Positions 1 through 30,660 are shown, numbered from the stretch's first letter. The stretch: 35,295 nucleotides of DNA from Oculatellaceae cyanobacterium bins.114 (GCA_033764315.1 JANRJA010000142.1:1-35295); one strand, 5' to 3'. The notes: a model not told the origin generated them from the letters alone. A program made the numbers and translations.

Positions 1-151
1 CCCATCTCATCTCCGTACAGACGCGATTAATCGCGTCTCTGCCCCTCTAATAATTGCAACACCTCATCCCGATCGGGAATTGCTTCCTCTAACCCCAATG
101 CGATCGCCCGATTGAGATCCGCCAATACCTCACGATATTGCTGGCGATCGC
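1..151. repeat. Array repeat copy 1 (left-truncated by window): pyrimidine-rich spacer + 20-bp palindrome + antisense TPR-gene 3' end, ending in HIP1 at 144-151
   Basis: Aligns by eye with 920-1048, 2334-2476 and 3302-3407. Palindrome AGACGCGATTAATCGCGTCT at 19-38; internal HIP1 at 100-107. Confidence 0.95.
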
Positions 152-152
152 C
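27..152 (-). pseudogene. Headless TPR-protein C-terminal fragment (GDRQQYREVLADLNRAIALGLEEAIPDRDEVLQLLEGQRRD*)
   Basis: Manual translation; nearly identical to the C-termini of ORFs 932-1138 and 2360-2572; no start codon or N-terminus. Confidence 0.85.
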
Positions 153-220
153 CTAAATATAAGCACTTATTCAGAGAGTGATCTGCTTTCACAGATTGGT
201 TAGAACGACGATCTGTGAGT

Positions 221-619
221 TTATGGAGCAAATGGATTAAGGAGATTCAGATCTTCAATATTTTGGAAATCTTGAACATTTCGTGTCACTAGAATGCTAT
301 CAATTTGAATTGCACAGGCTGCAATCAAAGCATCTGCTAAAGGAACTCGATACTTTCGTCGAATGTCGGCTGTGCGATCGAGAACTGGTTCAGTCAGTGA
401 AACCTCAGTTAGCGATCGCAAGAAGCTCCGAATTTGATTGGCTTCTGATTCGGTTAAAGCAGGATAGCAAAGCAATTCTACCCAGCTAATTGGGCAGTAA
501 AACCCGATAGCATCTCCAGTCAAAATTTCATTGAATAGAGGTTGAACGGTTAGATCCCCATTGAAGTAATAAATAAAGATATTGGTGTCGAGTAAATATT
601 GATTACCTGTTCCATTCAT
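221..619 (-). CDS. vapC: PIN-domain (VapC family) toxin
   Basis: YLLDTN N-terminal motif, DALIAACA, LVTRNVQDF; 132 aa; overlaps the upstream small gene. Confidence 0.92.
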   Translation of the reverse strand: MNGTGNQYLLDTNIFIYYFNGDLTVQPLFNEILTGDAIGFYCPISWVELLCYPALTESEANQIRSFLRSLTEVSLTEPVLDRTADIRRKYRVPLADALIAACAIQIDSILVTRNVQDFQNIEDLNLLNPFAP

Positions 620-827
620 CTCTTAAAGTCCTTTGGAACTGGAGCGGATCAGTCCGACTTTCTAGGAAGCCGAAGAGATTAGGAATTTCAGTCGAAGTAG
701 ATGTCGATCGCTCTAACGGTTGTAGTACAACAACAATTTCAACCAGCCCAGGTTGCACCCCCTCTGGAAGGGTCAGTTCTATTTTGCGATCGCGGTTGAC
801 TAAAACAATTTGCCGAATCGTTTCCAT
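603..827 (-). CDS. Putative VapB-type antitoxin
   Basis: 74 aa, directly upstream of vapC with a 17-bp overlap; ends DPLQFQRTLRDEW, resembling PIN-associated antitoxins. Confidence 0.75.
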   Translation of the reverse strand: METIRQIVLVNRDRKIELTLPEGVQPGLVEIVVVLQPLERSTSTSTEIPNLFGFLESRTDPLQFQRTLRDEWNR

Positions 828-867
828 TAGGCTTCAGGCATTAGGATAACTTTACTCATAATGATAG

Positions 868-1136
868 GCGATCTCCCCTTGGGAGAACTGCTTTGCCTCT
901 CTCCTCCCTCATTCACCCCGTACAGACGCGATTAATCGCGTCTCTGCCCCTCTAATAATTGCAACACCGCATCCCGATCGGGAATTGCTGCCTCTAATCC
1001 CAATGCGATCGCCCGATTGAGATCCGATAGTGCCTCACGATATTGCTGAAGGTCGCGATAGGCTAACCCGCGATTGTTGTAGGCAAGTGAATATTGCGGG
1101 TTAATTTCAATCGCACGGGTATAGTCCGGCGATCGC
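868..1136. repeat. Array repeat copy 2
   Basis: Starts at 1-mismatch HIP1 GCGATCTC (868-875); one 21-nt minirepeat (876-896); palindrome 924-943; TPR 3' end; ends at HIP1 1129-1136. Confidence 0.95.
932..1136 (-). pseudogene. Headless TPR fragment (DYTRAIEINPQYSLAYNNRGLAYRDL...EGQRRD*)
   Basis: Canonical TPR residues (AYNNRG, RAI). An extra G next to the HIP1 shifts the expected AIADY frame; no N-terminus. Confidence 0.85.
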
Positions 1137-1151
1137 AATTAACATCTTGTC

Positions 1152-1181
1152 CCTCAGTCTCTTCTGAGGATGGATTACAAT
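1152..1181 (+). promoter_or_regulatory. Putative TA promoter/operator: CCTCAG-N6-CTGAGG inverted repeat then TACAAT (-10-like); near-identical copy at 2579-2608
   Basis: Inverted repeat and -10-like hexamer about 30 bp upstream of the likely ATG at 1209. Confidence 0.35.
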
Positions 1182-1208
1182 AGCATCAAACTCTCAGGTT
1201 TTAGCGTT

Positions 1209-1511
1209 ATGCAAAGCTATTCACTGACAGAAATTCCACCTCCTTCTAATGAAATTTTGGAGCAAGCTGCAAGTGAGCCAGTCTTATTGACGCAGGAATC
1301 ACAACAAGCGCAATCTGATTACGTCCTCATGTCAGCGCAACGGTACCAAGATTTAATCAGGCGATTAGAGGAATTGGAAGACCGGGTATTTGGAACGTTT
1401 GCAGAGTCTGCACTGCGATCTTCGTCAATGGTTGGCTCAGATGCGTTTACAACTGAGCTTCAGCGGTTAGCAGCTTTAGAGAAGGTTTCTCAGCCGATAA
1501 AGGTCTTATAA
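1209..1511 (+). CDS. Phd/YefM-family antitoxin, copy A (altered C-terminus, cognate RelE absent)
   Basis: EPVLLT...YVLMSA..Y..L pattern; about 97% nt identical to the 2636-2911 copy up to 1472; alternative start at 1170. Confidence 0.78.
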   Translation: MQSYSLTEIPPPSNEILEQAASEPVLLTQESQQAQSDYVLMSAQRYQDLIRRLEELEDRVFGTFAESALRSSSMVGSDAFTTELQRLAALEKVSQPIKVL

Positions 1512-1555
1512 CACCAGAGATTAGGCTAGGTGAAGAGAGAAAATGGTTGATATAG

Positions 1556-1855
1556 ATGCACATCATTAGCTATAAGCGTTTGCGGGAATTTAGTGAACAA
1601 CATGCTGACTGTCGTGAAGCTTTAGATAACTGGTTTAAGGTCACCAGTAAGGCAGATTGGTCAAATTTGGTTGAAGTTCAAGCCACTTTTCCACAAGCTG
1701 AAGCCGTTGGAAATTTCACCGTTTTTAACGTTAAAGGAAACCATTATCGTTTGATTGTTAGCATCGACTATGAAAGGCAGTTAATTTATATCAAATACGT
1801 TCTGACTCACGCAGAATACGACAAGGAGAAATGGAAGAATGACTCTTACTTTTAA
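1556..1855 (+). CDS. higB: HigB-family toxin (RelE superfamily)
   Basis: MHIISYKRLREF, VFNVKGNHYRLI, LTHAEYDK; toxin-first order. Confidence 0.9.
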   Translation: MHIISYKRLREFSEQHADCREALDNWFKVTSKADWSNLVEVQATFPQAEAVGNFTVFNVKGNHYRLIVSIDYERQLIYIKYVLTHAEYDKEKWKNDSYF

Positions 1856-2240
1856 TGCCAGTCGATATAGTGAGCTTCTATCTCAATATCAACCCAAACT
1901 GATCAGAACCGAGGAAGACAACGAACGGGCACTTGCAGTTGTAGAAGAGTTGATGCATCGACCCAATCGAAGCCCAGAAGAGAATGAATTGTATGATTTA
2001 TTGATTGCTTTAATTGAAAAGTTTGAACACGAATTTTATCAAGTGAGTTCTCAATCTAACCCCAGTTCAATGCTTGAATTTTTGATGGAGCAACAGGGAA
2101 TTGCGATCGCTGAGTTAGCCAACGTGTTGGGGTCTGAGATAGCGGCGACTGAAATGTTAGAAGGAAAGCGTGAATTGTCGATCGCCCAAGTTAAAGTATT
2201 GAGTCAATTATTCAAAGTTGATTCAAGTGTGTTTATCTAG
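1839..2240 (+). CDS. higA: HigA-type HTH antitoxin
   Basis: Overlaps higB by 17 bp; LIEKFE and a C-terminal HTH-like region (GKRELSIAQVKVLSQLFKV). Confidence 0.87.
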   Translation: MTLTFNASRYSELLSQYQPKLIRTEEDNERALAVVEELMHRPNRSPEENELYDLLIALIEKFEHEFYQVSSQSNPSSMLEFLMEQQGIAIAELANVLGSEIAATEMLEGKRELSIAQVKVLSQLFKVDSSVFI

Positions 2241-2242
2241 GA

Positions 2243-2563
2243 GCGATCGCCCTTTGGGAGAACTGCTTTGCATCGCCCCTTGGGAGAATTGCTTTGCATC
2301 GCCTCTCTTCATCCATCTACTCATCCCCATTCACCCATCTCATCTCCGTACAGACGCGATTAATCGCGTCTCTGCCCCTCTAATAATCGCAACACCTCAT
2401 CCCGATCGGGAATTGCCTCCTCTAATCCCAATTCGATCGCCCGATTCAGATCCGCCAATGCCTCACGATATTGCTGAAGGTCGCGATAGACTAAACCTCG
2501 GTTGTAATAAGCATAAACATCTTGGGGATTGATTGCAATAGCACGAGTGTAGTCAGCGATCGC
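2243..2563. repeat. Array repeat copy 3 (most complete)
   Basis: HIP1 2243-2250, 2 nt after the higA stop; two 21-nt minirepeats each followed by ATCGC; palindrome 2352-2371; TPR 3' end; HIP1 2556-2563. Confidence 0.95.
2360..2563 (-). pseudogene. Headless TPR fragment (AIADYTRAIAINPQDVYAYYNRGLVYRDL...EGQRRD*)
   Basis: TPR consensus; begins exactly at the HIP1 that encodes Ala-Ile-Ala. Confidence 0.85.
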
Positions 2564-2635
2564 AATTAACATCTTGTCTCTCAGTCTCTTCTGAGGATGG
2601 ATTACAATAGCATCAAACTCTCAGGTTTTAGCGTT

Positions 2636-2911
2636 ATGCAAAGCTATGCACTGACAGAAATTCCACCTCTTTCTAATGAAATTTTGGAGCAGGCTGCAAG
2701 TGAGCCAGTCTTGTTGACGCAGGAATCACAACAAGCGCAATCTGATTATGTCCTCATGTCAGCGCAACAGTACCAAGATTTAATCAGGCGATTAGAGGAA
2801 TTAGAAGACCGGGTATTCGGAACGTTTGCGGAGTCTGCACTGCGATCTTCGTTAATGGTTGGCTCAGATGCGTTTACAACTGAGCTTCAGCGGTTAGCAA
2901 ATTTGGGGTAA
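2636..2911 (+). CDS. Phd/YefM-family antitoxin, copy B
   Basis: Same family pattern as copy A; 17 bp upstream of the RelE toxin; alternative start at 2597. Confidence 0.8.
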   Translation: MQSYALTEIPPLSNEILEQAASEPVLLTQESQQAQSDYVLMSAQQYQDLIRRLEELEDRVFGTFAESALRSSLMVGSDAFTTELQRLANLG

Positions 2912-2928
2912 CGTCAGTAGTACGTGAT

Positions 2929-3210
2929 ATGGCAAAACTGGATGGTCTGCAAACCGTTCTTGATTTTTTGAAAGGATTACAACCCAAGATTGCGGCTCAA
3001 ATTTCTAAGAAGGTTTTGGCTCTGAATATTGAACCATTACCCTCAGATAGCAAGGAGTTAACTGGATACTCTGGCTATTATCGAGTGGATTCGGGTGAAT
3101 ATCGCATTGTTTACCGCTTCAAAGCTGATGAAGATTTAGTTGAGATTGTTCTAGTCGGTAAGCGGAATGATGATGAAGTCTACAAGCAACTGAAAAGATT
3201 GTTAGGTTAG
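2929..3210 (+). CDS. relE: RelE/ParE-family toxin
   Basis: YYRVDSGEYRIVY...VGKRNDDEVY; 93 aa. Confidence 0.9.
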   Translation: MAKLDGLQTVLDFLKGLQPKIAAQISKKVLALNIEPLPSDSKELTGYSGYYRVDSGEYRIVYRFKADEDLVEIVLVGKRNDDEVYKQLKRLLG

Positions 3211-3407
3211 GCGATCGCCCTTTGGGGGAACTGCTTTGCATCGCCCCTTGGGAGAATTGCTTTGCATCGCCTCTCTTCATCCATCTACTCATCCCCATTC
3301 ACCCATCTCATCTCCGTACAGACGCGATTAATCACGTCTCTGCCCCTCTAATAATCGCAACACCTCATCCCGATCAGGAATTGCTGCCTCTAACCCCAAT
3401 GCGATCG
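3211..3407. repeat. Array repeat copy 4 (shortest TPR piece)
   Basis: HIP1 3211-3218 abuts the relE stop; two minirepeats; palindrome 3320-3339 with one mismatch; homology stops at GCGATCG 3401-3407, the internal HIP1 of copies 1 and 2. Confidence 0.95.
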
Positions 3408-3525
3408 AATGAATTTCTCCTATCATGTCAGTTAGTGGAATCGCTAAAAAAGCAATAGGACTTATGATTGAGGATAAACCTGGTGTAAGTCTGGTGCGAT
3501 CGCTCCCATTTCCCCTCGCCTGAAC

Positions 3526-3553
3526 TGTCTTCAATCATTTGTCTTCAATCATT
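3526..3553. repeat. 14-bp tandem duplication TGTCTTCAATCATT x2
   Basis: Seen directly, just upstream of the helicase start. Confidence 0.8.
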
Positions 3554-3575
3554 AGTGTGGTAGTGTCCCCCCTTT

Positions 3576-6227
3576 GTGAACGTTTCCTCTAGCCCTTTTG
3601 AACTTGATCTCAGTCGCCTGTTTCCATTTGAGTTAGATGGGTTTCAGCAACAGGCGATCGCCGCTCTCAACGCCAACAAATCAGTCGTGGTCTGTGCACC
3701 GACGGGTTCTGGTAAGACTCTCATTGGGGAATACGCCATATATCGAGCCATAGCAAGAAACAAGCGGGTCTTTTACACCACCCCCCTGAAGGCACTGTCA
3801 AATCAAAAACTTCGCGATTTTCGGGAACAGTTTGGGGCAGATCAGGTGGGGTTGTTGACGGGGGATGTCTCGGTCAACCGCGACGCCCCAGTGCTAGTGA
3901 TGACCACTGAAATCTTTCGTAACATGCTGTATGGCACCCCGATTGGGCAAGTGGGTACATCGCTCGTCGATGTCGAGACGGTGGTGTTAGACGAATGCCA
4001 CTACATGAACGATCGCCAACGCGGTACGGTGTGGGAGGAGTCGATCATCTATTGCCCTAACGAGGTGCAACTGGTGGCTCTGTCAGCGACGGTTGCCAAT
4101 AGTCAGCAACTCACCGATTGGATTGACCAGGTACACGGGCCAACTGAGTTAATCTACTCTGACTTTCGCCCTGTTCCACTGCAATTTTTGTTCTCTAGCC
4201 CTAAAGGATTATTTCCCCTGCTCAATCCTGAAGGCAAGGGCATCAACCCCCGACTGAAGCCCAAGGGAGGCAAGCCCAAGGGCAAACAAGAGGCTCCCAG
4301 TTTGGTGTCAGTGATTGGTCAGTTGCAACAGCGAGATATGTTGCCTGCGATTTATTTCATCTTTAGTCGGCGCGGCTGTGACCAGGCCATTAATGAATTG
4401 GATGGACTGTCACTGGTGAGTGAGGCTGAAACCGCCAAACTCAAAATGCAAATTGATGAGTTTCTAACCCGCAATCCTGAAGTCAACCGTGCCCCCCTAG
4501 AACCGCTCTATCGAGGCATCGCGGCTCACCACGCAGGCATTTTACCCGCCTGGAAGGGTTTAGTTGAGGAGCTGTTTCAACAGGGCTTAATCAAAGTCGT
4601 TTTTGCCACCGAGACTCTGGCCGCAGGGATCAACATGCCCGCTCGCACCACGGTCATCTCTAGTCTCTCTAAGCGCACAGATCGGGGACACCGTTTGTTA
4701 AATGCGTCGGAGTTTCTGCAAATGGCAGGACGAGCCGGACGCCGAGGCATGGATCCGGTGGGTTATGTTGTCACAGTGCAAAATCGGTTTGAGGGAGCCA
4801 CCGAGGGAGCTTACCTAGCCACATCCGGAGCCGATCCGCTGATTAGCCAGTTTAGCCCCAGCTATGGCATGGTGCTCAACTTGTTGCAAACCCATACGCT
4901 AGAAGAGGCGAAAGCCTTGATTGAGCGAAGCTTTGGGCAATATCTGGCGACGCTGTACTTGAAGCCCCAACAACAAGAAATTGAGCGGCTTGAGGCAGAG
5001 TTAGAACACCAACACGCTCAAATTGCTTCAGCGGATGCAGCACTGTTGGCAAACTATGAAAAGCTGCATGAACGGCTCAAAGAAGAACGCCGTTTGCTGA
5101 AGATCTTGCAACATCAAGCCCAAGACCTGCAAACCAATGAGTTGACGACGGCGTTGCCCTTTGCGATCGCGGGTACCCTGTTGAGTCTCAAGGGCAAACA
5201 CATTCCAGTGCAAACCCCGCTGCCCGCTGTGTTGGTGGCAAAAGTGCCTGGTTCAGGGCAATTCCCTTACCTGATTTGTCTAGGAAAAGACAATACCTGG
5301 TATGTTGTCACCGTGTCAGATGTAGTGGGGCTGCACGCTGAGTTTCCTCGCTTGATGGCAGCCGATCATCTGACTCCCCCGGTTGAGTTAGCCCTCAGAC
5401 CAGGGCACACCTGGAGCGGACAAGAGCAGACAGCGGCGATCGCTTATCAGATTCCGCAACCCCCCTCCGCCGCTGATCTGTCGCCTGAAGTTAAAGAGCA
5501 GCTAGAGCGAGTGGCAATGGTCGAGAGTCAAATCACCGCCCATCCAGCCCATCAGTGGGGCAATCCAGGCAAACTGGTGAAGCAGCAAAAGCGCATTGCC
5601 CGAATTCAAACCGAACTGAGCGATCGCCAACAAAAATTGAGCAAACAAACTCAACGCTATTGGCAAGAATTTCTCAGCTTGATGGATATCTTGCAACAGT
5701 TTAATTGTCTGATTGGGGTTCAGCCCACTGACCTGGGGCAAATTGCGGCGGCGATTCGAGGTGACAATGAACTGTGGCTGGGTCTAGCTCTGGCATCGGG
5801 TGAACTGGATGCCCTCGATCCACATTATCTGGCGGCGGCCTGTGCCGCACTGGTGACTGAGGTATCGCGCCCCGATAGCTGGACTAACTATGACCCGTCA
5901 GGCGAAGTGGAAGAAGCTCTCGAAGGGTTACGAGGCATTCGTCGCCAACTGTTTCAATTGCAACGTCGCCATCAAGTTGTGCTACCCATTTGGTTGGAAT
6001 ATGACTTTGTGGGATTGGTCGAGCAGTGGGCATTGGGAGAACCCTGGGTAGACCTGTGTTCCAATACCAGCCTGGATGAGGGAGATGTCGTGCGGATTTT
6101 GCGACGAACCCTCGACTTTTTATCGCAGATTCCCTACGTGCCTCATTTGTCAGCAGGTTTCAAGCAAAATGCAGTGAGAGCCATTCAGTTAATCGATCGC
6201 TTCCCGGTTAACGAAAGTATCAGCTAA
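3576..6227 (+). CDS. helY: Ski2/HelY-like DEAD/DEAH-box RNA helicase
   Basis: APTGSGKT, DECH, SAT, QMAGRAGRRG; C-terminal DSHCT-like region (DEGDVVRILRR); GTG start. Confidence 0.93.
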   Translation: MNVSSSPFELDLSRLFPFELDGFQQQAIAALNANKSVVVCAPTGSGKTLIGEYAIYRAIARNKRVFYTTPLKALSNQKLRDFREQFGADQVGLLTGDVSVNRDAPVLVMTTEIFRNMLYGTPIGQVGTSLVDVETVVLDECHYMNDRQRGTVWEESIIYCPNEVQLVALSATVANSQQLTDWIDQVHGPTELIYSDFRPVPLQFLFSSPKGLFPLLNPEGKGINPRLKPKGGKPKGKQEAPSLVSVIGQLQQRDMLPAIYFIFSRRGCDQAINELDGLSLVSEAETAKLKMQIDEFLTRNPEVNRAPLEPLYRGIAAHHAGILPAWKGLVEELFQQGLIKVVFATETLAAGINMPARTTVISSLSKRTDRGHRLLNASEFLQMAGRAGRRGMDPVGYVVTVQNRFEGATEGAYLATSGADPLISQFSPSYGMVLNLLQTHTLEEAKALIERSFGQYLATLYLKPQQQEIERLEAELEHQHAQIASADAALLANYEKLHERLKEERRLLKILQHQAQDLQTNELTTALPFAIAGTLLSLKGKHIPVQTPLPAVLVAKVPGSGQFPYLICLGKDNTWYVVTVSDVVGLHAEFPRLMAADHLTPPVELALRPGHTWSGQEQTAAIAYQIPQPPSAADLSPEVKEQLERVAMVESQITAHPAHQWGNPGKLVKQQKRIARIQTELSDRQQKLSKQTQRYWQEFLSLMDILQQFNCLIGVQPTDLGQIAAAIRGDNELWLGLALASGELDALDPHYLAAACAALVTEVSRPDSWTNYDPSGEVEEALEGLRGIRRQLFQLQRRHQVVLPIWLEYDFVGLVEQWALGEPWVDLCSNTSLDEGDVVRILRRTLDFLSQIPYVPHLSAGFKQNAVRAIQLIDRFPVNESIS

Positions 6228-6748: not shown

Positions 6749-8149
6749 ATGATGGCTCTCACCGCTCGGCTTCGCTCAGAAATTAATGCCTGTCTAATCT
6801 TGTCTGTGCCATTGGCCGGGGCACAGTTATCGCAGGCAATGACATCATTTACAGACACCGTGATGATGGGTCTGCTAGGAAGCCAAACACTGGCGGCAGG
6901 AGGATTAGGGGCTGCAACATTTGGGGTGTTGCTGATCATTAGCACAGGCATTGTCTCAGCCGTCAGTCCTCTGGTTGCAGAAGCCTATGGCAGCGGACAA
7001 CTAGAAAAAGTAGGACGAATCACCGCTCAAGGCGTATGGTTAGCCGTTTTCTTGGCGTTGCCAATCACTCTATTGCTGTGGAATATGGGTGCTTTGATGA
7101 GCCACTTTGGGCAAGCCGAAAGCATCGTTGTCTTAACCCAAGCTTATCTAAAGGCGATCGCTTGGGGGGTTTTGCCAGCCCTGATCTTTGCCGCTTTTAG
7201 AAGCACTGTTACTGCGCTGTCACGTCCTCGTCCTGTGTTAGCAATTACCATTAGCGGCACCTTGTTTAACGTCGTCGCCAACTATGTGTTGATGTTTGGC
7301 AAATTTGGTCTACCAACATTGGGGTTAGCCGGGATTGGTTGGGCCAGTAGCCTCTCTTTTTGGCTAATGTTGGTCGCCTTGATCATCTACATCAAAACTC
7401 AACCCGCTCTCTTGGCATGTGGGCTGTTTCGCCATCTACACCGCTTTGAGAGGCAGCGGTTTCAAGAACTCGTGGGAATCGGTATCCCCATTGGTGTGTT
7501 GTTTGCTGTTGAGGCAGGGTTATTTACCATCACTACATTTCTGATGGGCTATTTAGGAACCACCACACTGGCGGCTCATCAAATTGCGCTGCAAACCTCT
7601 GCACTCACCTTTATGGTGCCGATGGGAATTTCATTGGCAACAACCATCCGAGTCGGACAATTAGTTGGACAGGGCGATTCAGACGGGGCAAGACTTGCCG
7701 GATATGTCGGCATTGGACTCGGTGCTCTCTTTATGGCAGTCATGGGATTGATCATGTGGATCGCTCCCAGAAGCATCATTGCTCTTTATCTCAACCTCAA
7801 TGATGCTGAGAATGCGGCTGTCATCCAGATCGCCACATCACTTTTAGGAGTCGCTGCCCTCTTTCAAATTGTGGATGGCATTCAAGCGATCGCCGCTGGA
7901 GCATTGCGAGGCTTAAAAGACACGCGCATTCCCATGCTAATTGGCATCATCGCCTATTGGGGCGTTGGGTTGACCAGTGGCTATCTCTTAGGGCTACAGC
8001 AGGGGATGGGTGGAGTCGGTTTGTGGTTAGGATTGGCCATTGGCTTAGCGATCGCCGCCTGTGTCTTGACCTGGCGATTTCATAGCTTAGTGTCACTCGA
8101 AAAAACCAAAAAAAGAGACACGATGTATCGCGTCTGCCCTAAAGGGTGA
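6749..8149 (+). CDS. MATE-family (NorM-like) efflux transporter
   Basis: DTVMMGLLG, LAAHQIA, FQIVDGIQ, GALRGLKDT; about 12 hydrophobic segments; start could be 6731, 6734 or 6749. Confidence 0.93.
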   Translation: MMALTARLRSEINACLILSVPLAGAQLSQAMTSFTDTVMMGLLGSQTLAAGGLGAATFGVLLIISTGIVSAVSPLVAEAYGSGQLEKVGRITAQGVWLAVFLALPITLLLWNMGALMSHFGQAESIVVLTQAYLKAIAWGVLPALIFAAFRSTVTALSRPRPVLAITISGTLFNVVANYVLMFGKFGLPTLGLAGIGWASSLSFWLMLVALIIYIKTQPALLACGLFRHLHRFERQRFQELVGIGIPIGVLFAVEAGLFTITTFLMGYLGTTTLAAHQIALQTSALTFMVPMGISLATTIRVGQLVGQGDSDGARLAGYVGIGLGALFMAVMGLIMWIAPRSIIALYLNLNDAENAAVIQIATSLLGVAALFQIVDGIQAIAAGALRGLKDTRIPMLIGIIAYWGVGLTSGYLLGLQQGMGGVGLWLGLAIGLAIAACVLTWRFHSLVSLEKTKKRDTMYRVCPKG

Positions 8150-8186
8150 AAAAGAAGGGACGCGATTAATCGCGTCCCTTCTTTTT
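8149..8186. terminator. Perfect 38-bp palindrome acting as a probable bidirectional terminator; same GACGCGATTAATCGCGTC core as the array palindrome
   Basis: AAAAAGAAGGGACGCGATTAATCGCGTCCCTTCTTTTT between convergent genes. Confidence 0.8.
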
Positions 8187-8201
8187 TCTCCTCTTCTATC
8201 T

Positions 8202-9434
8202 CTACTGTCTCTGATCAGGAGACAGCTCTGCGGTACGCACCGAGAGTTGTTGAGTGCGATCGCCCCGTCTGATGGTGAGCCGCAGAGCTTGACCCAACTG
8301 GCTCCGTTCTACAGTGTCTTGCAACTGCTCAGCCGTCGTGATAGGGCGATTGTCAATCTGAGTAATCACGTCTCCCCGTCGCAATCCTCCTTGAGCCGCA
8401 GGTGAATTGGGTACAATGCCTACCACTAGCACTCCATCCACCTCTGGCAAAATCACCGTAGCGTTTGGATCGTCGTTGTTTTCCTTGGCCAACTCAGGGG
8501 TTAACGTGGCAATTTGCACACCCAAATACGGATGCACAATTTGTTCGCCACGGGCAAGGCGAGCAGTAATATCTTTGGCCTGGTTAACAGGAATGGCAAA
8601 CCCAATTCCCATCGCATTGGCTCGGATAGCCGTGTTGATGCCAATCACCTCACCTTGAGCGTTGAGCAAGGGCCCACCTGAGTTGCCAGGGTTGATCGCC
8701 GCATCAGTTTGAATAAATTCCACACGCTTGTCAGGAATGCCAACCAGTGAGCTAGGACGGTTGAGGGTGCTCACGATCCCTAAGGTGACGGTGTTGTCGA
8801 GTCCTAAGGGGTTGCCAACGGCGATCGCCCAATCTCCCACCTGCACCTGGTCTGAGTCCCCCAGAGGAACAGTCGGCAAGCTAGTTGCGTTGATTTTCAC
8901 CACTGCCAAATCCGTCACTTCGTCAGCACCTCGCACTTCGCCTTCAAACTGGCGTCCGTCTTTGAGCCTGACTGTCACGCGATCGGCATTATCCACAACA
9001 TGAGCATTGGTCAAGACAACACCATCAGCACTGACAATGAAGCCCGACCCCTGCCCCCGCAATCGCTCTTCATAAGGCCCCTGAGGAAACGTATTGTCGC
9101 CAAAAAAGCGACGGAAAAAGGGGTCATTTAGAAAAGGATCGGGGTTGCGGGTAATTGTTCGTTCGGTGTCAATGCGAACCACAGCTGCACCCACTCGGTT
9201 CACTGCTGCTGCCACAAAACTCGTCGTGCTGCTAGTAGCAGCAGGAGCCTGGGCAACGATCTGATTTGAATCGCCTAAAGCAAACCCATCAGCCGGAGTC
9301 AGGGTTGATATGGCATGAGGCAGCACTGGCAGGTTGTTTGGCCTAGGCAGTGCTGCTGCCCATGTGGGTAACACTCGAATTGGACTGAATGCCAAAACCA
9401 GTCCTAGAAGAATCGCAACAATACGAGTCATCAT
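8202..9434 (-). CDS. hhoA: HtrA/HhoA-family serine protease with PDZ domain
   Basis: GSGFI, TNAHVV, DLAVVK, IQTDAAINPGNSGGPL; signal peptide; one PDZ. Confidence 0.9.
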   Translation of the reverse strand: MMTRIVAILLGLVLAFSPIRVLPTWAAALPRPNNLPVLPHAISTLTPADGFALGDSNQIVAQAPAATSSTTSFVAAAVNRVGAAVVRIDTERTITRNPDPFLNDPFFRRFFGDNTFPQGPYEERLRGQGSGFIVSADGVVLTNAHVVDNADRVTVRLKDGRQFEGEVRGADEVTDLAVVKINATSLPTVPLGDSDQVQVGDWAIAVGNPLGLDNTVTLGIVSTLNRPSSLVGIPDKRVEFIQTDAAINPGNSGGPLLNAQGEVIGINTAIRANAMGIGFAIPVNQAKDITARLARGEQIVHPYLGVQIATLTPELAKENNDDPNATVILPEVDGVLVVGIVPNSPAAQGGLRRGDVITQIDNRPITTAEQLQDTVERSQLGQALRLTIRRGDRTQQLSVRTAELSPDQRQ

Positions 9435-15569: not shown

Positions 15570-15669
15570 ATACCAATATGAATTGGCTTCGCTGCACATG
15601 ATTTCGTAAGGGCGTTTCGCGAAACGCCTTTACCCAGTAATCTGCCACAATCAAACATTAAATCGGTAT
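15570..15669. repeat. REP-like palindrome (15606-15633) inside a ~100-bp element with loose ATACC...GGTAT terminal inverted repeats
   Basis: GTAAGGGCGTTTCGCGAAACGCCTTTAC; second palindrome copy at 18085-18110; similar ATACCAAT end at 12660. Confidence 0.6.
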
Positions 15670-21892: not shown

Positions 21893-22471
21893 ACCAACCT
21901 TATCCCTAAAAATTAAGAAAAGGATATTGTTAGTTTAAAGAGAAATTAAAGTGCCTGTCTCTCTCTAGATACACAACTTTATAGGTGCATCTAGTTCACA
22001 AATAGGTCGCGATCGCCCTTCCCCACATGATTTTGGGTCAACTACAGCAAACTTTTAACCACATGAATGACCCTTGCTACAGAGAGCGATCGAGTCGATA
22101 GTGATTGAGAAGTTGAGGTTGACTGTTGTGATTGCATTCCCATCAAAAAATAGAGGGCAAAGGTAATGACCACAGCTTGCAGCAGTTTTTTAGACATTGC
22201 TCGTCCTCCTGATGAACTGGGAGACTACCAAATTAAACTACTGCAACGGGATTACACTTCACCCGCCTGACTCCCCCTTTTGGGCGATCGTAGAAAATAA
22301 TCAGATCAAGAAACCATTGTGCAGGTCAATGGTTAGTCCTAGACGGTCACGAGCATCAATTTAGGCTGAGCATTTGGTGAATGGATTCGCCGCTAGACTG
22401 AGCTTCGCCAACTATCTAAGCTCGCATCAAAGTCGGCGATCTTAACCGCCAAAGCGACTCATCATCGACCC

Positions 22472-23803
22472 TTATTTTTGAGCCAAACGCACAATCTCAG
22501 AGGTGACTGCCATTGTTTCCTCGTATAGGCCATCCCGACCCCACCGCTGAAGTTGTTGACCCAACAAAAACTCCGCCTTTTGATCAGACAAGGCTGTGAC
22601 TTGCTCAGTCCGACAGGCTTGAGCCGATCCCCCGGCTTCCATGCGCATACACCCAGTGGTTTCAGAGCAAAGAATGGTACAGCAGTCAGCGTTGAGATTG
22701 GTTGAGGTGAGACGAATGCCAACCAAATCGCCCAAGATTTCGCCCCAGTCTGCTGTTGGAATAGCAGCTAACTCGGCTTCGATCAGTTTGTGATTTGCCC
22801 CCTCAAACTTAATGTGTTTGAGGTCATAGTCACCCCCTTGTGCTTCAAAGGACAACGGACGCCACCCTAAACGACTGGCTACCCAACCCAAAAACATCAG
22901 GGCTTGAGCCGCACTTCCTTTTTCGTAATCGATCGCCACTCGATCAACTTCCACCAATGCAGTACGACGTTCGGGTGGGTCAAAGGCAGCCGCCGCCAAT
23001 TCTTGCCAGGGTGAAATGCGGTGCCAGTTCAGATCGGCAACAAATTTATCTGCCTCAATCAGCTTGTACATCTTGAGAAACTCAGACTCAGGATCACTGA
23101 AATAGGACGAATCTAAGATGATGCAATTGCAATTTTCAGAGAGCTTGCGGAACAACTCTTGTTCGGGGTTGGGGGTTGCCTTCCACCAAACAAATTTGGG
23201 CAGTTCAGGAATCATCAGCGACAACACGAGATCGCTGGCTCGTTGCAGGGCTGCTTTTGTGCCCCTTAGCGTGATGTATTCGCAGCAAATGAGCGTGCTG
23301 ACACTCCGCTTTTGCAAAGGACAATAGGCTGACACTTGAGCCGTGATCCCCTCATCTTCACCCAACACAGGGCAAAGAGTGATGATGCGGCAAGGATTTT
23401 GAGAGGCGATCGCATCACTCAGACTAAACCCACGCAGGTTGAGATTAGACACTTCTAAGCGATCGATCGGTTGCTTAAAATATTCCTCACGCAGGCGAGC
23501 GAGTGTATTAGGATCAACCCGTCCCGTTTCTAAAAAGCCAAACGCTTTTTGAGCCGCTTTCACAGCCGTTTTGGTAAGTGGCCCATGAATGCCATCAATC
23601 GGACCATCATAAAACCCCAAGACTGCTAACAGTTGTTGATACTCTTCGGGTTCATAAACCACCATGCTGAATGTGGCAGCTCTAGCGGCGATCGGGGCTG
23701 CCTGATTACCATTCTGGCTTTGCCAGATTTTGGTTAGTTCTGCCTCAATTTCATCGAGGGAAATATCTTTTGGCTTTTGCAGCGCAACAAGTGGAGTAGT
23801 CAT
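22472..23803 (-). CDS. opcA: Glucose-6-phosphate dehydrogenase assembly/activator protein OpcA
   Basis: NPCRIITLCP, CCEYITL, PKFVWW, DLNWHR; directly downstream of zwf. Confidence 0.93.
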   Translation of the reverse strand: MTTPLVALQKPKDISLDEIEAELTKIWQSQNGNQAAPIAARAATFSMVVYEPEEYQQLLAVLGFYDGPIDGIHGPLTKTAVKAAQKAFGFLETGRVDPNTLARLREEYFKQPIDRLEVSNLNLRGFSLSDAIASQNPCRIITLCPVLGEDEGITAQVSAYCPLQKRSVSTLICCEYITLRGTKAALQRASDLVLSLMIPELPKFVWWKATPNPEQELFRKLSENCNCIILDSSYFSDPESEFLKMYKLIEADKFVADLNWHRISPWQELAAAAFDPPERRTALVEVDRVAIDYEKGSAAQALMFLGWVASRLGWRPLSFEAQGGDYDLKHIKFEGANHKLIEAELAAIPTADWGEILGDLVGIRLTSTNLNADCCTILCSETTGCMRMEAGGSAQACRTEQVTALSDQKAEFLLGQQLQRWGRDGLYEETMAVTSEIVRLAQK

Positions 23804-23924
23804 AGTTTGTTTTAAGTGTTTGGTTTGAGTTTAGGCAACAAACAACAGAGTGTGGGCAGCAGTGAGCCAATTATGTTTGAGAGAAGCAAGCCCTTATATT
23901 CCCTCGTTCTCAATCTTTCTCGGT

Positions 23925-25454
23925 TTACAATCTTCGCCAACGCCGACCATCTCGGTTTAACAACGTTTCTGCTTCAACAGGCTCCCAAGTGCCCGCTTCA
24001 TACATAGGGATCGCATCTGGAGGGGCAGGGGCATCCCACGCTTCTAGCAACGGGGTTAATACACGCCAAGACGCTTCTACTTCATCTCCGCGAGTAAACA
24101 GCGTCTGATCTCCTAGCATACAGTCAATTAACAGACGACCATATGCCTCTGCGCTGGCTTGACCAAAGGCCGCATCATAGCGGAAGTCCATTTCAACCGT
24201 TCGGGTACGCAAGGAGGTTCCTGGTGTTTTAACATCAAAGCGAATCGCGATTCCCTCATCAGGTTGAATGCGCAGCACCAATACGTTGTTGTTGACCTGC
24301 TTCGCAGCCGACTGAAACATCAGATGCGGCACTTCCTTAAACTGAATCGCGATCTCCGATACTTTTTTAGGCATGCGTTTCCCGGTGCGCAGGTAAAAGG
24401 GCACCCCTTTCCACCGCCAGTTGTCAATGTAAAGCTTGATGGCGGCATACGTTGGGGTCGTAGACGTGGGCGATGCCCCATCTTCTTCACGATAGGCTGG
24501 CACCGCTTTGCCATTCATCCAACCAGCGGTGTATTGCCCTCGCACAGCTGAGCGGTCTAGATTTTCTAGATCAGCAAGGTGCGTCGCTTGAATCACCTTC
24601 ACCTTTTCGTTGCGAATGCTATCGGCATCCAATGCGTTGGGCGGTTCCATCGCTGTTAGGCAAAAGAGTTGCATCAGGTGGTTTTGCACCATGTCTCGTA
24701 GTGCCCCAGCGGTCTCATAATAGCCTGCCCGTCCCTCTAGACCTACTGTTTCAGCGACGGTGATTTGAACGTGATCGACAAATTGACGATTCCACAATGG
24801 CTCAAAAATGGCATTAGCAAATCGGAAAACCAACAGGTTTTGAACGGTTTCCTTACCCAGGTAGTGGTCAATCCGATAAATCTGCTCTTCTTGGCAAACC
24901 TGGTGCACCACCTGATTGAGCATCTGGGCTGAGCCGATATCTTTGCCAAAAGGTTTTTCAATCACCAGACGGTGCTTTTTGGGATCGGGCAACATTCCAG
25001 CTGAGCCTAGCTGTTGAGCAGCTTCCCCAAAAAACCGAGGAGCCACCGATAGGTAGAACACGCGATTGCCTCTGGTTCCCCGTAGCTCGTCTAACTCTTG
25101 CAAAAATGCCTTGAGCTTTTGATAGCTGGCAGGGTTGTCGATATCCCCAGAGCAATAAAACAGTCCTTTGGCAAAGTCTTTCCAAACTTCCTCTGAAATC
25201 AGCCCACCCCCAAATTGCTCAATGCCCTCCTTCATGTGGTTGCGGAAGAAATCGTGATCCCAGTCGCGACGAGCCACACCAACAATGGTGAGTTCTGGAG
25301 GCAATTTGCGGTCTTGCTTCATTTGATAGAGCGCAGGCACTAACTTGCGCTGGGTTAAGTCACCCGATGCACCAAAAATGACCAGGATTTGAGGTTCAGG
25401 AATGCGATCGTGTTGCAGACCAACGCGAAGGGGGTTTTCGAGCAGAGTAACCAT
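23925..25454 (-). CDS. zwf: Glucose-6-phosphate 1-dehydrogenase
   Basis: [26 protein letters not shown]. Confidence 0.98.
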
Positions 25455-25582
25455 AGGCGGGAAAGGGGGTTAGGGGAAGATAGAGAGAAAAAAGCAGATG
25501 GAAGAGAGAAGATGGAAGAGAGAAAAAGAAAATGGAAGCAGCTATTCACTTTTTTCGTTCTTCACTCTTCACTCTTCCTTTT

Positions 25583-26731
25583 TTATGCGACGTTGCTGAG
25601 GAGTTTAACTTTGCCTTCCATCGACTGCATGAGGGATTGGAAGGGTTGGACGAATTTGTCGATGCCTTCATCAAGCAGTTCATCCATGACCTGATCGAGG
25701 TCGATATTGATGTCAGGGTCTTTGAGGTTTTCAATTACCTGATAAGCCTGGTCAACGTTGAGTTCAATGCGATCGCCCACATCACAATGGTCAGCACACG
25801 CTTCGATTGTAGCGGGAGGTAACGTATTGACTGTATCAGCTCCAACCAATTCGTCAACGTACATCACATCGTTGTAATCAGGATTTTTGGTGCTGGTGCT
25901 AGCCCACAATAACCGCTGAACTTTGGCTCCTTTCGCCACTAGTGCTTTCCAGCGATCGCTCTGGATGATTTTCTTGTACTCTTGATAGGCAATTTTGGCA
26001 TTGGCGATCGCCACTTTGCCTTTGACCGCTTCTAATTTGGCTTTTTCTGAGAGTTGGTCGATGCCTTTGAGTTTATCGTCAATGCGCTTGTCAATGTTGC
26101 TGTCAATGCGGCTCAGAAAGAAACTGGCAACTGAGGCAATATTGTCTACTTTTTCACCGTTAGCAGCCCGTGTTTCGAGTCCTCGAATGTAAGCCCAAGC
26201 CGTATCAATGTAGCTTTGAACTGAGAACAAAAGGGTTACGTTAACGTTGATCCCAGCGGCGATCGTGGCTTCAACCGCGGGTAAACCTTCCGGTGTACCC
26301 GGGATTTTGATCATCACGTTTTCTTTGCCGATCGCGGCATAGTAACGCTTTGCTTCTTGAATCGTTTTTTCAGTATCACGGGCGATCGTCGGTGGCACCT
26401 CGATACTGACGTAGCCATCTAACCCGTTAGACGCCTCATACACCGGGCGCAAAATATCACAGGCATTACGGATATCATCAAACGTTAACGATTCATAGAT
26501 CTCCAAGACGGGTTTGCTGGCCCGAATGCCTGCCTCAATGTCGGCATCATACATTTTGTTGCCGTTGATGGCTTTCTCAAAAATGGCAGGGTTTGACGTG
26601 ATCCCGGCAATTCCTTTGTTCTCAACCAAATCCTTGAGTTCTCCCGACTGCAAGATGTCACGAGTCAAGTTATCCATCCAAATACTCTGACCGTATTGCT
26701 TAATTTCAAGCAAATGATTTGTAGCTGTCAT
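25583..26731 (-). CDS. tal: Transaldolase
   Basis: GITSNPAIF, IKIPGT, NVTLLFS, SFFLSRID, QRLLWASTS; start at MTATNH preferred. Confidence 0.96.
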   Translation of the reverse strand: MTATNHLLEIKQYGQSIWMDNLTRDILQSGELKDLVENKGIAGITSNPAIFEKAINGNKMYDADIEAGIRASKPVLEIYESLTFDDIRNACDILRPVYEASNGLDGYVSIEVPPTIARDTEKTIQEAKRYYAAIGKENVMIKIPGTPEGLPAVEATIAAGINVNVTLLFSVQSYIDTAWAYIRGLETRAANGEKVDNIASVASFFLSRIDSNIDKRIDDKLKGIDQLSEKAKLEAVKGKVAIANAKIAYQEYKKIIQSDRWKALVAKGAKVQRLLWASTSTKNPDYNDVMYVDELVGADTVNTLPPATIEACADHCDVGDRIELNVDQAYQVIENLKDPDINIDLDQVMDELLDEGIDKFVQPFQSLMQSMEGKVKLLSNVA

Positions 26732-26802
26732 TATGCAAATCGCTCCTGTAATTATTTCTACTAAACACAATGTTGCTGAGAATTAGCTGAGCTAGCCTCT
26801 AG

Positions 26803-27879: not shown

Positions 27880-28039
27880 GCATTCCCTCCTTACCGTTTA
27901 GTTTTGGTGACCCAGGAAGGTAACATCAGCAATTTCACGGTTGCTGCCCTGGTACACCTCTACCTCTATCTTAGAAAGTCATTTCTATAAGCGGACTGAA
28001 CTTTAGATCAACTATAGAAAGGAAGCAGAAAGGAAGCTG

Positions 28040-28067
28040 AGAGAGATGCGATTAATCACCCCTCTCT
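28040..28067. repeat. Degenerate copy of the GCGATTAATCGC palindrome family
   Basis: AGAGAGATGCGATTAATCACCCCTCTCT just past the stop of the DUF4912 gene. Confidence 0.5.
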
Positions 28068-28076
28068 TGGCTTGCT

Positions 28077-30263: not shown

Positions 30264-30660
30264 AAGATAACTACCTGATCAACTCCAATTGTAAATTTTT
30301 GAAAAAGACGTGCTCATTATATAACCCTTTACTCCATGGAAAATGTCTGAGTAGAAATACTTATCACCCAAGTTTTTTTGAATAACTAGGGCTTAGGCAA
30401 AGAGTGCTAAGTAGGATATGTAAATCAATTAAAGCGTGTCTCCTAGCTGTGTCGCCTCTGTGTCACCCGTGCGCGTTGCGCTATCCTCCTTCCCCCCTAA
30501 CTCAGTGGGCTTTCATAAAATGCGGTCAGACCTGAGAGCGGCTTACCCGACGTAGCCTGATGGCATGACGAATGATGAACAATTGACCGATAATTTAGTA
30601 CTTCACAATAGACAGGTAATTAACCATCTTCCCCTCCTACCCTTCACTCCTTAATGCATC

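Follow-up and report, generated by a model that had tools for sequence, protein, structure and literature searches.

The octamer HIP1 (GCGATCGC) is among the commonest DNA words in cyanobacteria and, to our knowledge, has stood without an explanation for 30 years. Evidence brought together in Elhai 2015 (PMC4390886) links it to site-specific as well as illegitimate recombination: SDR5 repeats insert between its bases 3 and 4, plasmids recombine at it in PCC 7002, and cloned HIP1 recombines illegitimately, excision between sites included, in both Synechococcus PCC 7942 and E. coli, at frequencies that are similar according to the title cited there. A preprint by Kamoku and Nielsen 2024 (bioRxiv 10.1101/2024.09.10.611283) describes a Chi-like increase in integration efficiency, and that preprint and Rodriguez-Cruz et al. 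2026 (PMC13756078) treat HIP1 as an enhancer of transformation, Chi-like or acting on uptake. In this literature, Elhai 2015 included, its function is still being worked out.

Here we describe an array of toxin-antitoxin (TA) modules at one end of a 35,295-nt stretch of cyanobacterial DNA (hereafter, the window). Its likeness to HIP1-associated recombination, as presented in those sources, lies in joints at the octamer, deletions and insertions between two HIP1 sites and no element-borne recombinase. It differs from the earlier cases covered there in that the evidence is natural and comparative, with entire TA modules as well as gene fragments reassorted across four genomes or contigs, and in that one docking HIP1 is reused, the result being a tandem, cassette-like array and not just one deletion. 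TA-rich chromosomal integron arrays (Vibrio-type superintegrons and integrase-less CALIN) likewise consist of small units, many of them TA modules, which alternate with a repeated spacer, vary in content among relatives and probably owe some of their stability, as would the array described here, to the TA modules. Unlike integrons and CALIN, the window yielded no attC, attI or IntI. Its cargo is found on both strands and is not by design promoterless, a gene fragment with selfish repeats serves as spacer, and the joints are an 8-bp genome-wide word. Rhs/CDI orphan C-terminus arrays also have repeated copies of a gene's 3' end downstream of that gene, with small genes between them, but here the fragment is a tetratricopeptide (TPR) tail instead of a toxin tip, and the cargo consists of independent TA operons instead of matched immunity genes. 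The main interest of the locus is as natural evidence on HIP1 action, by which a vague idea of HIP1 recombination becomes testable; it would also mean that defence or addiction modules can come to form a cassette-like array without an integrase, which matters for recognising such arrays in genome scans.

Anatomy of the array

Repeat search, blastn against the whole assembly and MAFFT alignment identified four composite-repeat copies, all on the minus strand (f1 to f4; pairwise identity 85-96%) and separated by VapBC, then a Phd-like gene with HigBA, then a Phd-like gene with RelE, in units of 0.7-1.1 kb; the strict alternation of four copies with different cargo, noticed in the original prediction, is thereby confirmed. 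The aligned extents of two copies are slightly wider than those listed (f2, 868/918-1145; f3, 2243-2572). The features are:

1..151 (-): repeat copy f1, truncated by the contig start; holds the palindrome (19-38) and a TPR 3' fragment, and ends on the right at HIP1 144-151
221..619 (-): VapC, PIN-domain toxin; Pfam PF01850, E 4.6e-14; NCBIfam VapC models below cut-off
603..827 (-): VapB-like antitoxin, without a family match and named from its position overlapping the vapC start
868..1136 (-): repeat copy f2; mutated HIP1 868-875 (GCGATCTC); one 26-nt unit; palindrome 924-943; HIP1 1129-1136
932-1138 (-): ORF of the f2 TPR fragment; TPR_1, E 2.7e-11
1209..1511 (+): Phd/YefM-like antitoxin, copy 2, an orphan adjoining HigBA; repeat homology reaches 1472
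1556..1855 (+): HigB toxin; Pfam PF09907, E 2.4e-32; RefSeq plasmid homologues annotated HigB
1839..2240 (+): HigA antitoxin, C-terminal HTH; PDB 5ifg_B HigA, E 6.8e-7; HTH_3, E 0.019
2243..2563 (-): repeat copy f3; HIP1 2243-2250 interrupted by two 26-nt units (2246-2271, 2272-2297); a spacer; palindrome 2352-2371; HIP1 2556-2563
2360-2572 (-): ORF of the f3 TPR fragment; TPR_1, E 8.1e-13
2636..2911 (+): Phd/YefM-like antitoxin, copy 3; entered in the database in its 91-aa form
2929..3210 (+): RelE/ParE-family toxin; Pfam PF05016, E 6.8e-8
3211..3407 (-): repeat copy f4; HIP1 3211-3218, holding two 26-nt units; palindrome at 3320-3339, with 1 mismatch; TPR tail of 80 nt, ending inside a HIP1 (GCGATCG, 3401-3407)
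3408..3575 (no strand): native helY upstream region; 3438-3469 is 94% identical to the sequence just upstream of helY in the sister genome G001
3576..6227 (+): HelY/Ski2-type DEAD-box helicase, conserved flank; Pfam DSHCT, 6.3e-41, and DEAD, 1.2e-28

Judged by its sequence, the locus is an array made of predicted TA modules only. The three toxins belong to type II families known in Pfam (PIN/VapC, HigB and ParE/RelE); RelE/ParE homologues that are 82-86% identical in amino acids adjoin Phd-like genes in Calothrix and Scytonematopsis loci, and the VapB-like protein has copies in related loci L076 (90% identical) and L084 (84%). The Phd-like gene matches its family weakly (PF02604, E 0.02, below cut-off), three of its homologues being named Phd/YefM by JGI. 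The prediction that all cargo genes are TA components thus holds for the three toxin families and HigA, while the VapB assignment is positional and the Phd-like gene belongs to the repeat: f2 and f3 extend about 340 nt beyond their described ends and take in this gene, with 918-1472 matching 2346-2899 (92% over 555 nt, and 96.6% in the Phd part). At f2 and f3 the repeat unit is therefore about 560-660 nt long, and part of the supposed cargo is repeat. A remnant of about 90 bp after f4, previously counted as cargo, turns out to be sequence upstream of helY, a gene present in 25 of 25 genomes searched.

The composite repeat has four layers, namely the HIP1 octamer, 26-nt micro-inserts that interrupt it in f2-f4 (one or two per copy), a 20-nt REP-like palindrome and the 3' end of a TPR gene. 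This 3' end is truncated at successive internal HIP1 sites in different copies, so that the fragments form a nested set with a common start at the HIP1 beyond the TPR stop and other ends at TPR-internal HIP1 sites (144-151; 1129/2556; 3401-3407). The fragment encodes TPR only and its full-length relatives are plain TPR proteins, in agreement with the earlier statement that the spacer is not a toxin tip. Composed of a TPR 3' fragment, HIP1-splitting micro-inserts and a REP-like palindrome that occurs throughout the genome, the repeat is a pile-up and probably not in itself a site dedicated to recombination by a new cassette machine.

Position 1 of the window is base 1 of its contig (C218), so that the array, as anticipated, runs past the left edge and is cut there. 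The source assembly is a draft of 251 contigs, and the joints unique to the window (151/152, 867/868 and 3407/3408) rest on this one assembly. That the array is an artefact, in which repeats of several loci or strains were misjoined, could be argued from these joints, from a contig that starts within a repeat and from a genome completeness of 90.7%, but we regard it as extremely unlikely: two independent assemblies have long repeat-plus-cargo blocks collinear with the window (L084 with 1508-2250 and with 2496-3221, L076 with 610-873), contigs of two environmental runs cross from TPR into Phd (2527-2760, with 2 differences, and 2447-2760), and the 4-15% difference between copies is enough for separate assembly.

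Module order in related loci

The array was compared with four related contigs, drawn from one metagenome and three further genomes; two of the four represent one genus. On three of these contigs the same modules lie beside a full or near-full TPR gene, each time in a different order: MNT-HepT / TPR tail / HigBA / VapB / TPR fragment-Phd-RelE / 414-aa TPR gene in L084; Phd' / HigBA remnant / VapC remnant-VapB / MNT-HepT / TPR gene in L076 (= G060); and MNT / TPR gene in G061. The VapB, HigBA, Phd-RelE and/or MNT-HepT modules found in these three differ in their state of decay as well as in order. In G011, which represents another genus and neighbourhood, only the MNT-HepT pair and a TPR-tail remnant have been kept. 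A clean HIP1-to-HIP1 indel, about 1.9 kb long, distinguishes the congeneric G061 and G060, and the same HIP1 is joined to a third partner in L084 (alignment A5). The locus and its relatives can be read as natural before-and-after states, with modules deleted, duplicated and re-partnered precisely at HIP1.

The proposal of a locus that shuffles cassettes is thus borne out as far as the reassortment of modules between genomes goes, whereas a dedicated cassette machine gains no support. Variation of the helY-adjacent locus had also been expected; related loci do vary in module order, but the sole same-genus genome lacks the array at the corresponding site. Its absence there, together with the dispersal of parts of the repeat without a link to TA cargo, counts in part against the original reading. 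Phd copies 2 and 3 are each other's closest match, relatives being only 77-81% identical. The 3' joints of the two nevertheless differ, one leading to HigB and the other to RelE, and each recurs in a relative; this combination fits gene conversion between the two copies.

HIP1 at the joints and the search for recombination machinery

Among 87 unique homology-breakpoint positions, 23 lie no more than 3 nt from an exact HIP1, compared with 5.2% of all positions (binomial P 7e-11, a value that overstates the case because the positions, through the shared history of the lineages, are not fully independent). HIP1 density in the island is 3.1-4.4/kb, and the enrichment at breakpoints is five-fold over this local density; in the control, the rest of the window against syntenic G001, 1 of 108 breakpoints falls at HIP1 (null 2.3%). 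The other 64 positions are away from exact HIP1, and some of them are microhomology deletions or within-gene divergence, such as the Phd 3' end (1472/2899) and the L076 deletions. In the junction alignments the exact octamer is present in both partners at the joints, with HIP1 visible in one partner only at the right end of f1. On its left, the HIP1 beyond the TPR stop is joined to no fewer than five different partners (HigA end, RelE end, VapB 5' flank, HepT end and MNT flank), and in one contig of environmental run X2 it is preceded by the end of an unrelated gene. As read from these alignments, the joints are ubiquitous HIP1 octamers and not the 150-320 bp repeat as such, and a common word seems to be the seam at which TA modules are swapped.

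If the [TPR tail-Phd-toxin] segment had simply been duplicated in tandem and had then diverged and suffered deletions, HIP1 would appear at the joints owing to its frequency and conservation. The 555-nt block common to f2 and f3, the closer resemblance of the window copies to each other than to relatives and the high HIP1 density of the island are all in keeping with this scenario, which is nonetheless unlikely given an enrichment over local density that is lacking in the syntenic control, and given that divergence alone cannot produce mosaic joints in which one HIP1 has three different partners.

No integrase or transposase was found among the 21 other ORFs of the window (the left side of the array lies off the contig) or among the 20 island ORFs of two fully flanked islands, L076 and L084. 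A crude scan of 1-3600 (R''/R' cores and L-box pairing, not IntegronFinder) gave 0 attC-like candidates, and at E<=1 the array matched no Rfam family but one irrelevant lncRNA; the earlier remarks that the spacer is not an attC and that no integrase or transposase is nearby hold for the window, and the second also for the two related islands. The signature of tandem integrative islands was likewise missing in integrase and in identical fragment ends (151, 1136/2563, 3407). Serial site-specific integration of small mobile elements at the TPR 3' end, duplicating the target each time as in tRNA-gene islands, with an integrase lost or off the contig, is very unlikely. Same-orientation 3' fragments of one gene do alternate with cargo, the array does continue past the contig edge, and the MNT-HepT pair with its TPR-tail remnant has moved to another neighbourhood in G011; against this, fragment lengths and end sites differ, units of 0.7-1.1 kb are too small for a recombinase, the complete L076 and L084 islands are integrase-free, and the copy furthest to the right, shorter than all the others, has no intact gene joined to it.

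We have more time, if still little confidence, for a dedicated site-specific system, an integron analogue in which a hypothetical enzyme, possibly a nuclease or recombinase directed at HIP1/CGATCG, uses HIP1 or the composite repeat as an att-like site and captures TA cargo. It would explain joints that fall exactly on the octamer and sometimes inside it (3401-3407), a single docking HIP1 with many partners and cargo that is entirely TA; moreover, Uma2 nuclease-family genes flank the L076 and L084 islands, and directed cutting at HIP1 is named as a possibility in Elhai 2015 (PMC4390886). However, a candidate enzyme linked to the array is absent from the window and from the two complete islands, the 10,682 HIP1 copies in genome G000 would call for extra specificity, none of which was seen, and the illegitimate recombination of cloned HIP1 in E. 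coli, as reported in the same source, suggests that cyanobacterial machinery is not needed.

Proposed formation of the array and its selfish repeats

On balance, we lean towards an integrase-free chromosomal TA island, not an integron-like machine, that owes its assembly and reshuffling to short-homology exchange at HIP1 together with homologous recombination or gene conversion between duplicated TPR/Phd blocks; the route and the enzymes are what we infer here. Modules would be DNA segments bounded by HIP1, and the relatives suggest an ancestral layout in which the island lay directly downstream of a secreted-type TPR gene. That gene would have had a single HIP1 in each 34-residue repeat, at the motif AIAD (the L084 TPR gene has 11 HIP1 in 1245 nt, or 8.8/kb, compared with 1.61/kb in genome G000), and a HIP1 about 60-80 nt past its stop codon would have been the common docking joint. 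Short-homology exchange at non-allelic HIP1 sites, plausibly among the chromosomes of one polyploid cell or with DNA incoming in natural transformation, may first have duplicated [antitoxin-toxin-HIP1-spacer-TPR tail] blocks and created the new joint 'TPR fragment|HIP1|phd'. Further HIP1-HIP1 exchanges would then have replaced, deleted or re-ordered cargo, while homologous recombination or gene conversion across direct repeats of 150-650 bp would keep the TPR/Phd blocks similar and could reorder units.

A broader and distinctly more tentative possibility is that GCGATCGC is the universal joint of integrase-free gene-cassette exchange in HIP1-rich cyanobacteria. Any HIP1-to-HIP1 segment might then be excised, duplicated or imported, probably via natural transformation or a HIP1-directed nuclease, and genes with one HIP1 per repeat, the TPR gene among them, might be landing pads on which TA and defence modules accumulate. 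If true, HIP1 would gain a role in building the flexible genome.

In the favoured model, selfish elements, that is, the 26-nt inserts splitting HIP1 after its third base and the REP-like palindrome at the TPR stop, would have entered the joints before the copies multiplied in the window lineage. Genome-wide blastn of the repeat, as originally suggested, tied the TPR part to the locus (4 of 4 matches in the assembly on C218) but not the other parts. The perfect palindrome is dispersed without a TA link, with 154 genome copies at <=2 mismatches, 67 of them exact and 40 of the 154 clustered (<=300 nt from another copy), which resembles REP/BIME elements. Unlike REP with a cognate RAYT, it does not occur within 1.5 kb of any of the 12 Y1-transposase-like genes (PF01797 matches). 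The 26-nt units, single or in tandem, interrupt HIP1 after its third base (GCG|ATCGC), at a site that is intact and empty in L084 and L076 (alignment A4). They share this layout with SDR5-type mobile repeats (Elhai et al. 2008, as covered in Elhai 2015 and Xu et al. 2018), from which, as described there, they differ in sequence and in occurring in a Leptolyngbyaceae-type rather than a Nostocaceae genome. In the source genome the units were seen in two TA islands only, the second of which, on C239, carries a unit in the same layout.

Composite repeat copies and their toxin-antitoxin cargo

Repeat search, whole-assembly blastn and MAFFT alignment confirmed, with corrections, the original prediction that four repeat copies (f1–f4, 85–96% pairwise identical) alternate with cargo at the left end of the window. 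As had been stated, the array is cut at the left edge of the window, which is base 1 of the contig, and the proposed leftward extension failed, as no other contig of the source genome (G000) overlaps the start or carries the TPR part. The repeat is a composite of distinct layers, listed here for f3 in plus-strand reading; HIP1 is the cyanobacterial octamer GCGATCGC.

Repeat copies in the window and the layers of f3
1–151: repeat copy f1, cut by the contig start
868/918–1145: repeat copy f2
2243–2572: repeat copy f3
3211–3407: repeat copy f4
2243–2250: HIP1 of f3, immediately after the HigA stop codon
2246–2271 and 2272–2297: two 26-nt units, between the third and fourth base of HIP1 2243–2250
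after the 26-nt units: spacer of ~50 nt
2352–2371: perfect 20-nt palindrome, overlapping the stop of the minus-strand TPR ORF
2360–2572, minus strand: TPR ORF, a TPR repeat plus C-terminal tail (TPR_1, E 8e-13)
2556–2563: second HIP1 of f3, at the end of the TPR ORF

The homology between f2 and f3 extends into the next gene (918–1472 vs. 2346–2899, 92% over 555 nt; 96.6% in its Phd-like part), so that the antitoxin gene, originally counted as cargo, belongs to the repeat there.

Cargo genes of the array
VapC toxin: PIN, E 4.6e-14
VapB: small gene overlapping VapC, assigned by that position; no family match
HigB toxin: E 2.4e-32, after the first Phd-like gene
HigA antitoxin: matches solved HigA structures, E 7e-7, after HigB
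ParE/RelE toxin: E 6.8e-8, after the second Phd-like gene

The locus is a predicted toxin-antitoxin (TA) island with confirmed toxin families. The broader claim that all cargo is type II TA holds for the toxin families and HigA; VapB lacks a family match, and the Phd assignment of the Phd-like genes is weak, as they match PF02604 at E 0.02, under the cut-off, and their database relatives carry a Phd/YefM source name in 3/9 cases and PF02604 in one. The plasmid collection contained homologues of HigBA only (70–72%). As a separate observation, in Calothrix, Scytonematopsis and related genomes (loci L077–L083 and L085–L090) RelE is 82–86% identical in amino acids to the window's copy across orders and its Phd-like partner only 48–52%, which, judged by these identities, is unusually lopsided conservation within one TA pair.

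The layers of the repeat (TPR part, palindrome and 26-nt unit) differ in genomic distribution, and the genome-wide blastn that had been proposed gave a divided answer: the TPR part is confined to the window locus (4/4 matches), but the palindrome is dispersed. The 91%-complete assembly contains no close full-length TPR parent, the best match reaching ~50% amino acid identity.

Modules and TPR genes in related islands

Two contigs proved informative in a search with the Phd-like family: L076, which belongs to a Leptolyngbyaceae MAG and is identical to G060:C478, and L084, from a metagenome. In both, the island is flanked by a quinone-oxidoreductase gene on one side and a pentapeptide-repeat gene on the other; in the source genome these two genes are neighbours (C30:13291–16968), and neither a TPR nor a TA gene separates them. 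Each contig also has a minus-strand TPR gene that is complete or nearly so. The C-terminus of this gene matches the TPR fragments of the window, and the window's modules recur downstream of it in altered order.

TPR genes and module order in related genomes
L084 TPR gene: 414 aa, hydrophobic N-terminus, 8 AIAD-containing repeats
L076 TPR gene: 7483–8464, split into two ORFs of 117 and 171 aa
L084 order: MNT-HepT (broken), 65-nt TPR tail, HigB-HigA, VapB, 68-nt TPR fragment-Phd-RelE (frameshifted), TPR gene
L076 order: truncated Phd, 40 nt HigB/HigA overlap, 42 nt VapC, VapB, MNT-HepT, TPR gene
G061 (third genome of the L076/G060 genus) order: only MNT, TPR
G011 (another genus): MNT-HepT pair, then a TPR-tail remnant of 65 nt; neighbourhood unrelated

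A frameshift, the deletion of an internal repeat or a misassembly accounts for the split of the L076 TPR gene. No TA genes were found in the ~1.4 kb visible downstream of a TPR homologue in genome G018. DNA identity between the window and L076/L084 is 88% for HigBA, 80–91% for VapB, 81% for TPR fragment-Phd-RelE and 74–77% for the TPR tail, compared with 67–81% for the housekeeping flanks, which hints that some modules may have been exchanged more recently than the genomes diverged. Neither an integrase nor a transposase was present among the 20 island ORFs of L076 and L084. Uma2-family genes (putative restriction endonuclease fold), one intact and the others broken, flank both islands (L076 3757–5078; L084 4722–4988).

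Metagenome support came from only two public runs, both with ~7% of sampled words, and the contigs are short fragments; they served only to supply two contigs that bridge the joint of TPR fragment and Phd, along with one alternative left partner, and no circle or excision joint was found in them.

Homology breakpoints and HIP1

When all block ends were inspected, many ends of homology blocks coincided exactly with GCGATCGC in both partners. The HIP1 at the HigA stop continues into 26-nt units and TPR tail in the window vs. the 3′ end of vapB in L084, and the one in the VapB 5′ flank continues into TPR tail (window), TPR fragment (L084) or MNT (L076). A HIP1 at the RelE stop occurs in the window, in L084 and beside a truncated RelE in genome G008. 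Two copies of the joint of TPR fragment, HIP1 and Phd upstream region are found in the window and one in L084; L076 has the same HIP1 before Phd without any TPR. That the array is an artefact of assembly is, in our estimation, a very slim prospect.

Counting unique positions at the ends of HSPs of ≥60 nt and ≥73% identity, with sequence ends dropped, 23/87 breakpoints lay within 3 nt of an exact HIP1 vs. 5.2% of all positions (binomial P 7e-11, which is optimistic because breakpoint positions share history). The other 64/87 are off HIP1, several being small deletions or divergence inside genes. As a control, the rest of the window was compared with the syntenic 40 kb of G001, the only same-genus genome, and 1/108 ends fell at HIP1 (null 2.3%), showing that alignment ends have no general tendency to settle on HIP1. 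This result speaks against a plain duplication in which HIP1 is coincidental, an explanation we regard as distinctly unlikely.

The cleanest case is alignment A5, in which G061 equals the left flank of L076 up to GGCGATCGCCC and thereafter equals L076 sequence ~1.9 kb further on; in L084 this octamer is followed by yet another, third sequence. In alignment A4, a HIP1 ~60–80 nt past the TPR stop (the docking HIP1) and the spacer are homologous in the window, L084 and L076, and the left partner of this octamer is HigA, RelE, the VapB flank or HepT, MNT in G061, and another gene end in one contig of the environmental run X2. With a shared docking HIP1 and differing left partners, the TPR fragments therefore form a nested set, all beginning at the docking HIP1 and stopping at successive HIP1 sites (f4 at 3401–3407, f1 at 144–151, f2/f3 at 1129/2556). 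The TPR gene of L084 is exceptionally HIP1-dense: its 1245 nt hold 11 octamers, which recur every 102 nt, once in each repeat, vs. a source-genome average of 1.61/kb. The idea that the modules themselves bring HIP1 with them was rejected, since in HIP1-poor heterocystous genomes Phd-RelE modules are not HIP1-bounded.

Exchange between non-allelic HIP1 sites is the best-supported account, and one we hold to be probable with some reserve. If the HIP1 inside the TPR tail on one chromosome copy exchanged unequally with the phd-upstream HIP1 of another copy, the unit Phd-toxin-HIP1-spacer-TPR tail would be duplicated and exactly the observed joint of TPR fragment, HIP1 and Phd would arise; cargo would be replaced or deleted by further events of this HIP1-HIP1 kind, and the resulting direct repeats would permit ordinary homologous recombination. 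Identity between the window's two Phd copies is 96.6%, against 77–81% to relatives; even so, one copy shares its 3′ joint (to HigB) with L076 and the other its 3′ joint (to RelE) with L084, a pattern that gene conversion between the copies would fit.

The exchange may be passive short-homology recombination or may be aided by a factor that reads HIP1. Counting for the passive route, Elhai 2015 (PMC4390886) describes illegitimate recombination of cloned HIP1 sequences in both Synechococcus PCC 7942 and E. coli, at similar frequencies as worded in the title of a paper cited there. Counting for the assisted route are the Chi-like and uptake roles of HIP1 proposed by Kamoku and Nielsen (10.1101/2024.09.10.611283) and by Rodriguez-Cruz et al. 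(PMC13756078). A dedicated HIP1-directed system is, in our view, rather unlikely. The proposed shuffling TA cassette locus is partly borne out by the reordered modules of L084 and L076; a dedicated cassette machine was not evidenced.

The locus behaves like a small cassette array, similarly to those of integrons, but differs from them in having no attC-like sites, no integrase seen and cargo in both orientations. Two earlier statements held here: the spacer shows no attC-like site in a crude scan of 1–3600, the Rfam search also yielding no relevant match, and no integrase or transposase lies next to the array within the window, none being found among 21 further window ORFs. The unequal repeat ends and the lack of an integrase in the DNA covered also distinguish the locus from tandem integrative islands, and the repeated fragment is not a toxin tip as in Rhs/CDI orphan arrays. 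Serial integration is, in our view, highly unlikely. The joints of the locus match reports of HIP1 recombination in isolated laboratory cases. In the open-access literature we found no publication linking HIP1 to TA modules or island boundaries, and nothing pertinent to TA islands in cyanobacteria among the matches listed. The locus and its relatives offer natural, checkable evidence on the role of HIP1.

Dispersed elements and the helY flank

The 20-nt palindrome is a REP-like element distributed genome-wide in G000, with 154 copies at ≤2 mismatches, 67 of them exact and 40 within 300 nt of another copy. A RAYT-linked REP was rejected, since 0/12 Y1-transposase-like genes have a copy within 1.5 kb, and scans for an intrinsic terminator and promoter gave no signal above shuffled sequences. 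Being present in all four copies and in G001 and absent from L076 and L084, the palindrome is older than copy multiplication in the window's lineage, as likewise are the 26-nt units of f2–f4. The stretch separating the MatE and protease genes contains a further palindromic element (window 8156–8179), which is related to the REP-like family and matches G001 in both orientations.

Alignment A4 shows the 26-nt units as later insertions into an intact docking octamer; they behave like the SDR5 class of HIP1-splitting micro-repeats as described in Elhai 2015 (PMC4390886) and Xu et al. 2018. The idea that the unit marks TA genes in other genera was rejected, because 5/6 scanned loci have one or two copies in non-TA surroundings; it was not found in the sixth, L094. 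Within G000 it is present only in the window array and a second TA island, C239:37850–40400 (L097 4850–7400), downstream of a 1244-aa WD40 gene. That island consists of HepT-MNT, an antitoxin-like gene plus PIN gene, and a pair of small genes lacking a family assignment; tandem 26-nt units, in 1, 2 and 3 copies, stand between these modules, and the REP-like palindrome brackets them. The MNT-gene segment lies elsewhere in G001, and the other modules have no match there.

The ~90 bp after f4, originally read as a cargo remnant, is instead native upstream region of helY, the conserved helicase gene right of the array, judging from the 94% identity of 3438–3469 to the sister genome. In G001, helY (93% identical in amino acids) has a 1382-aa WD40-type gene upstream and no array; the sole trace of the repeat, 4.8 kb upstream of helY, is the palindrome with 47 nt of TPR tail. 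The helY-adjacent comparison that had been suggested thus recovered a remnant, which permits no strain-level comparison of cargo order and indicates that the helY site is probably old in the genus, with content not conserved.

The GGDEF-EAL and WD40 neighbours in G001 map to other G000 contigs (C56 and C241), with no repeat at the ends of these homologues. A MITE-like dispersed repeat of ~106 nt (copies 85–88% identical) separates the GGDEF-EAL gene from the palindrome in G001 (L075 3815–3922) and is present in at least 14 places in G000. Contig C241 opens (1–330) with the C-terminal part of a transposase-like ORF, which looks ISAs1-type by a motif, adjoining tandem repeats and the closest homologue of the helY-adjacent WD40 gene of G001; this suggests an IS-linked rearrangement of the G001-type WD40 neighbourhood. 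Within the window, 100 nt at 15570–15669 match two separate sites in the syntenic 40 kb of G001 (91–92%), another small dispersed repeat. Finally, ~22470–35130 (~12.7 kb), carrying the genes for transaldolase, G6PD, OpcA, FBPase and neighbours, is inverted relative to G001, the rest of the window being collinear.
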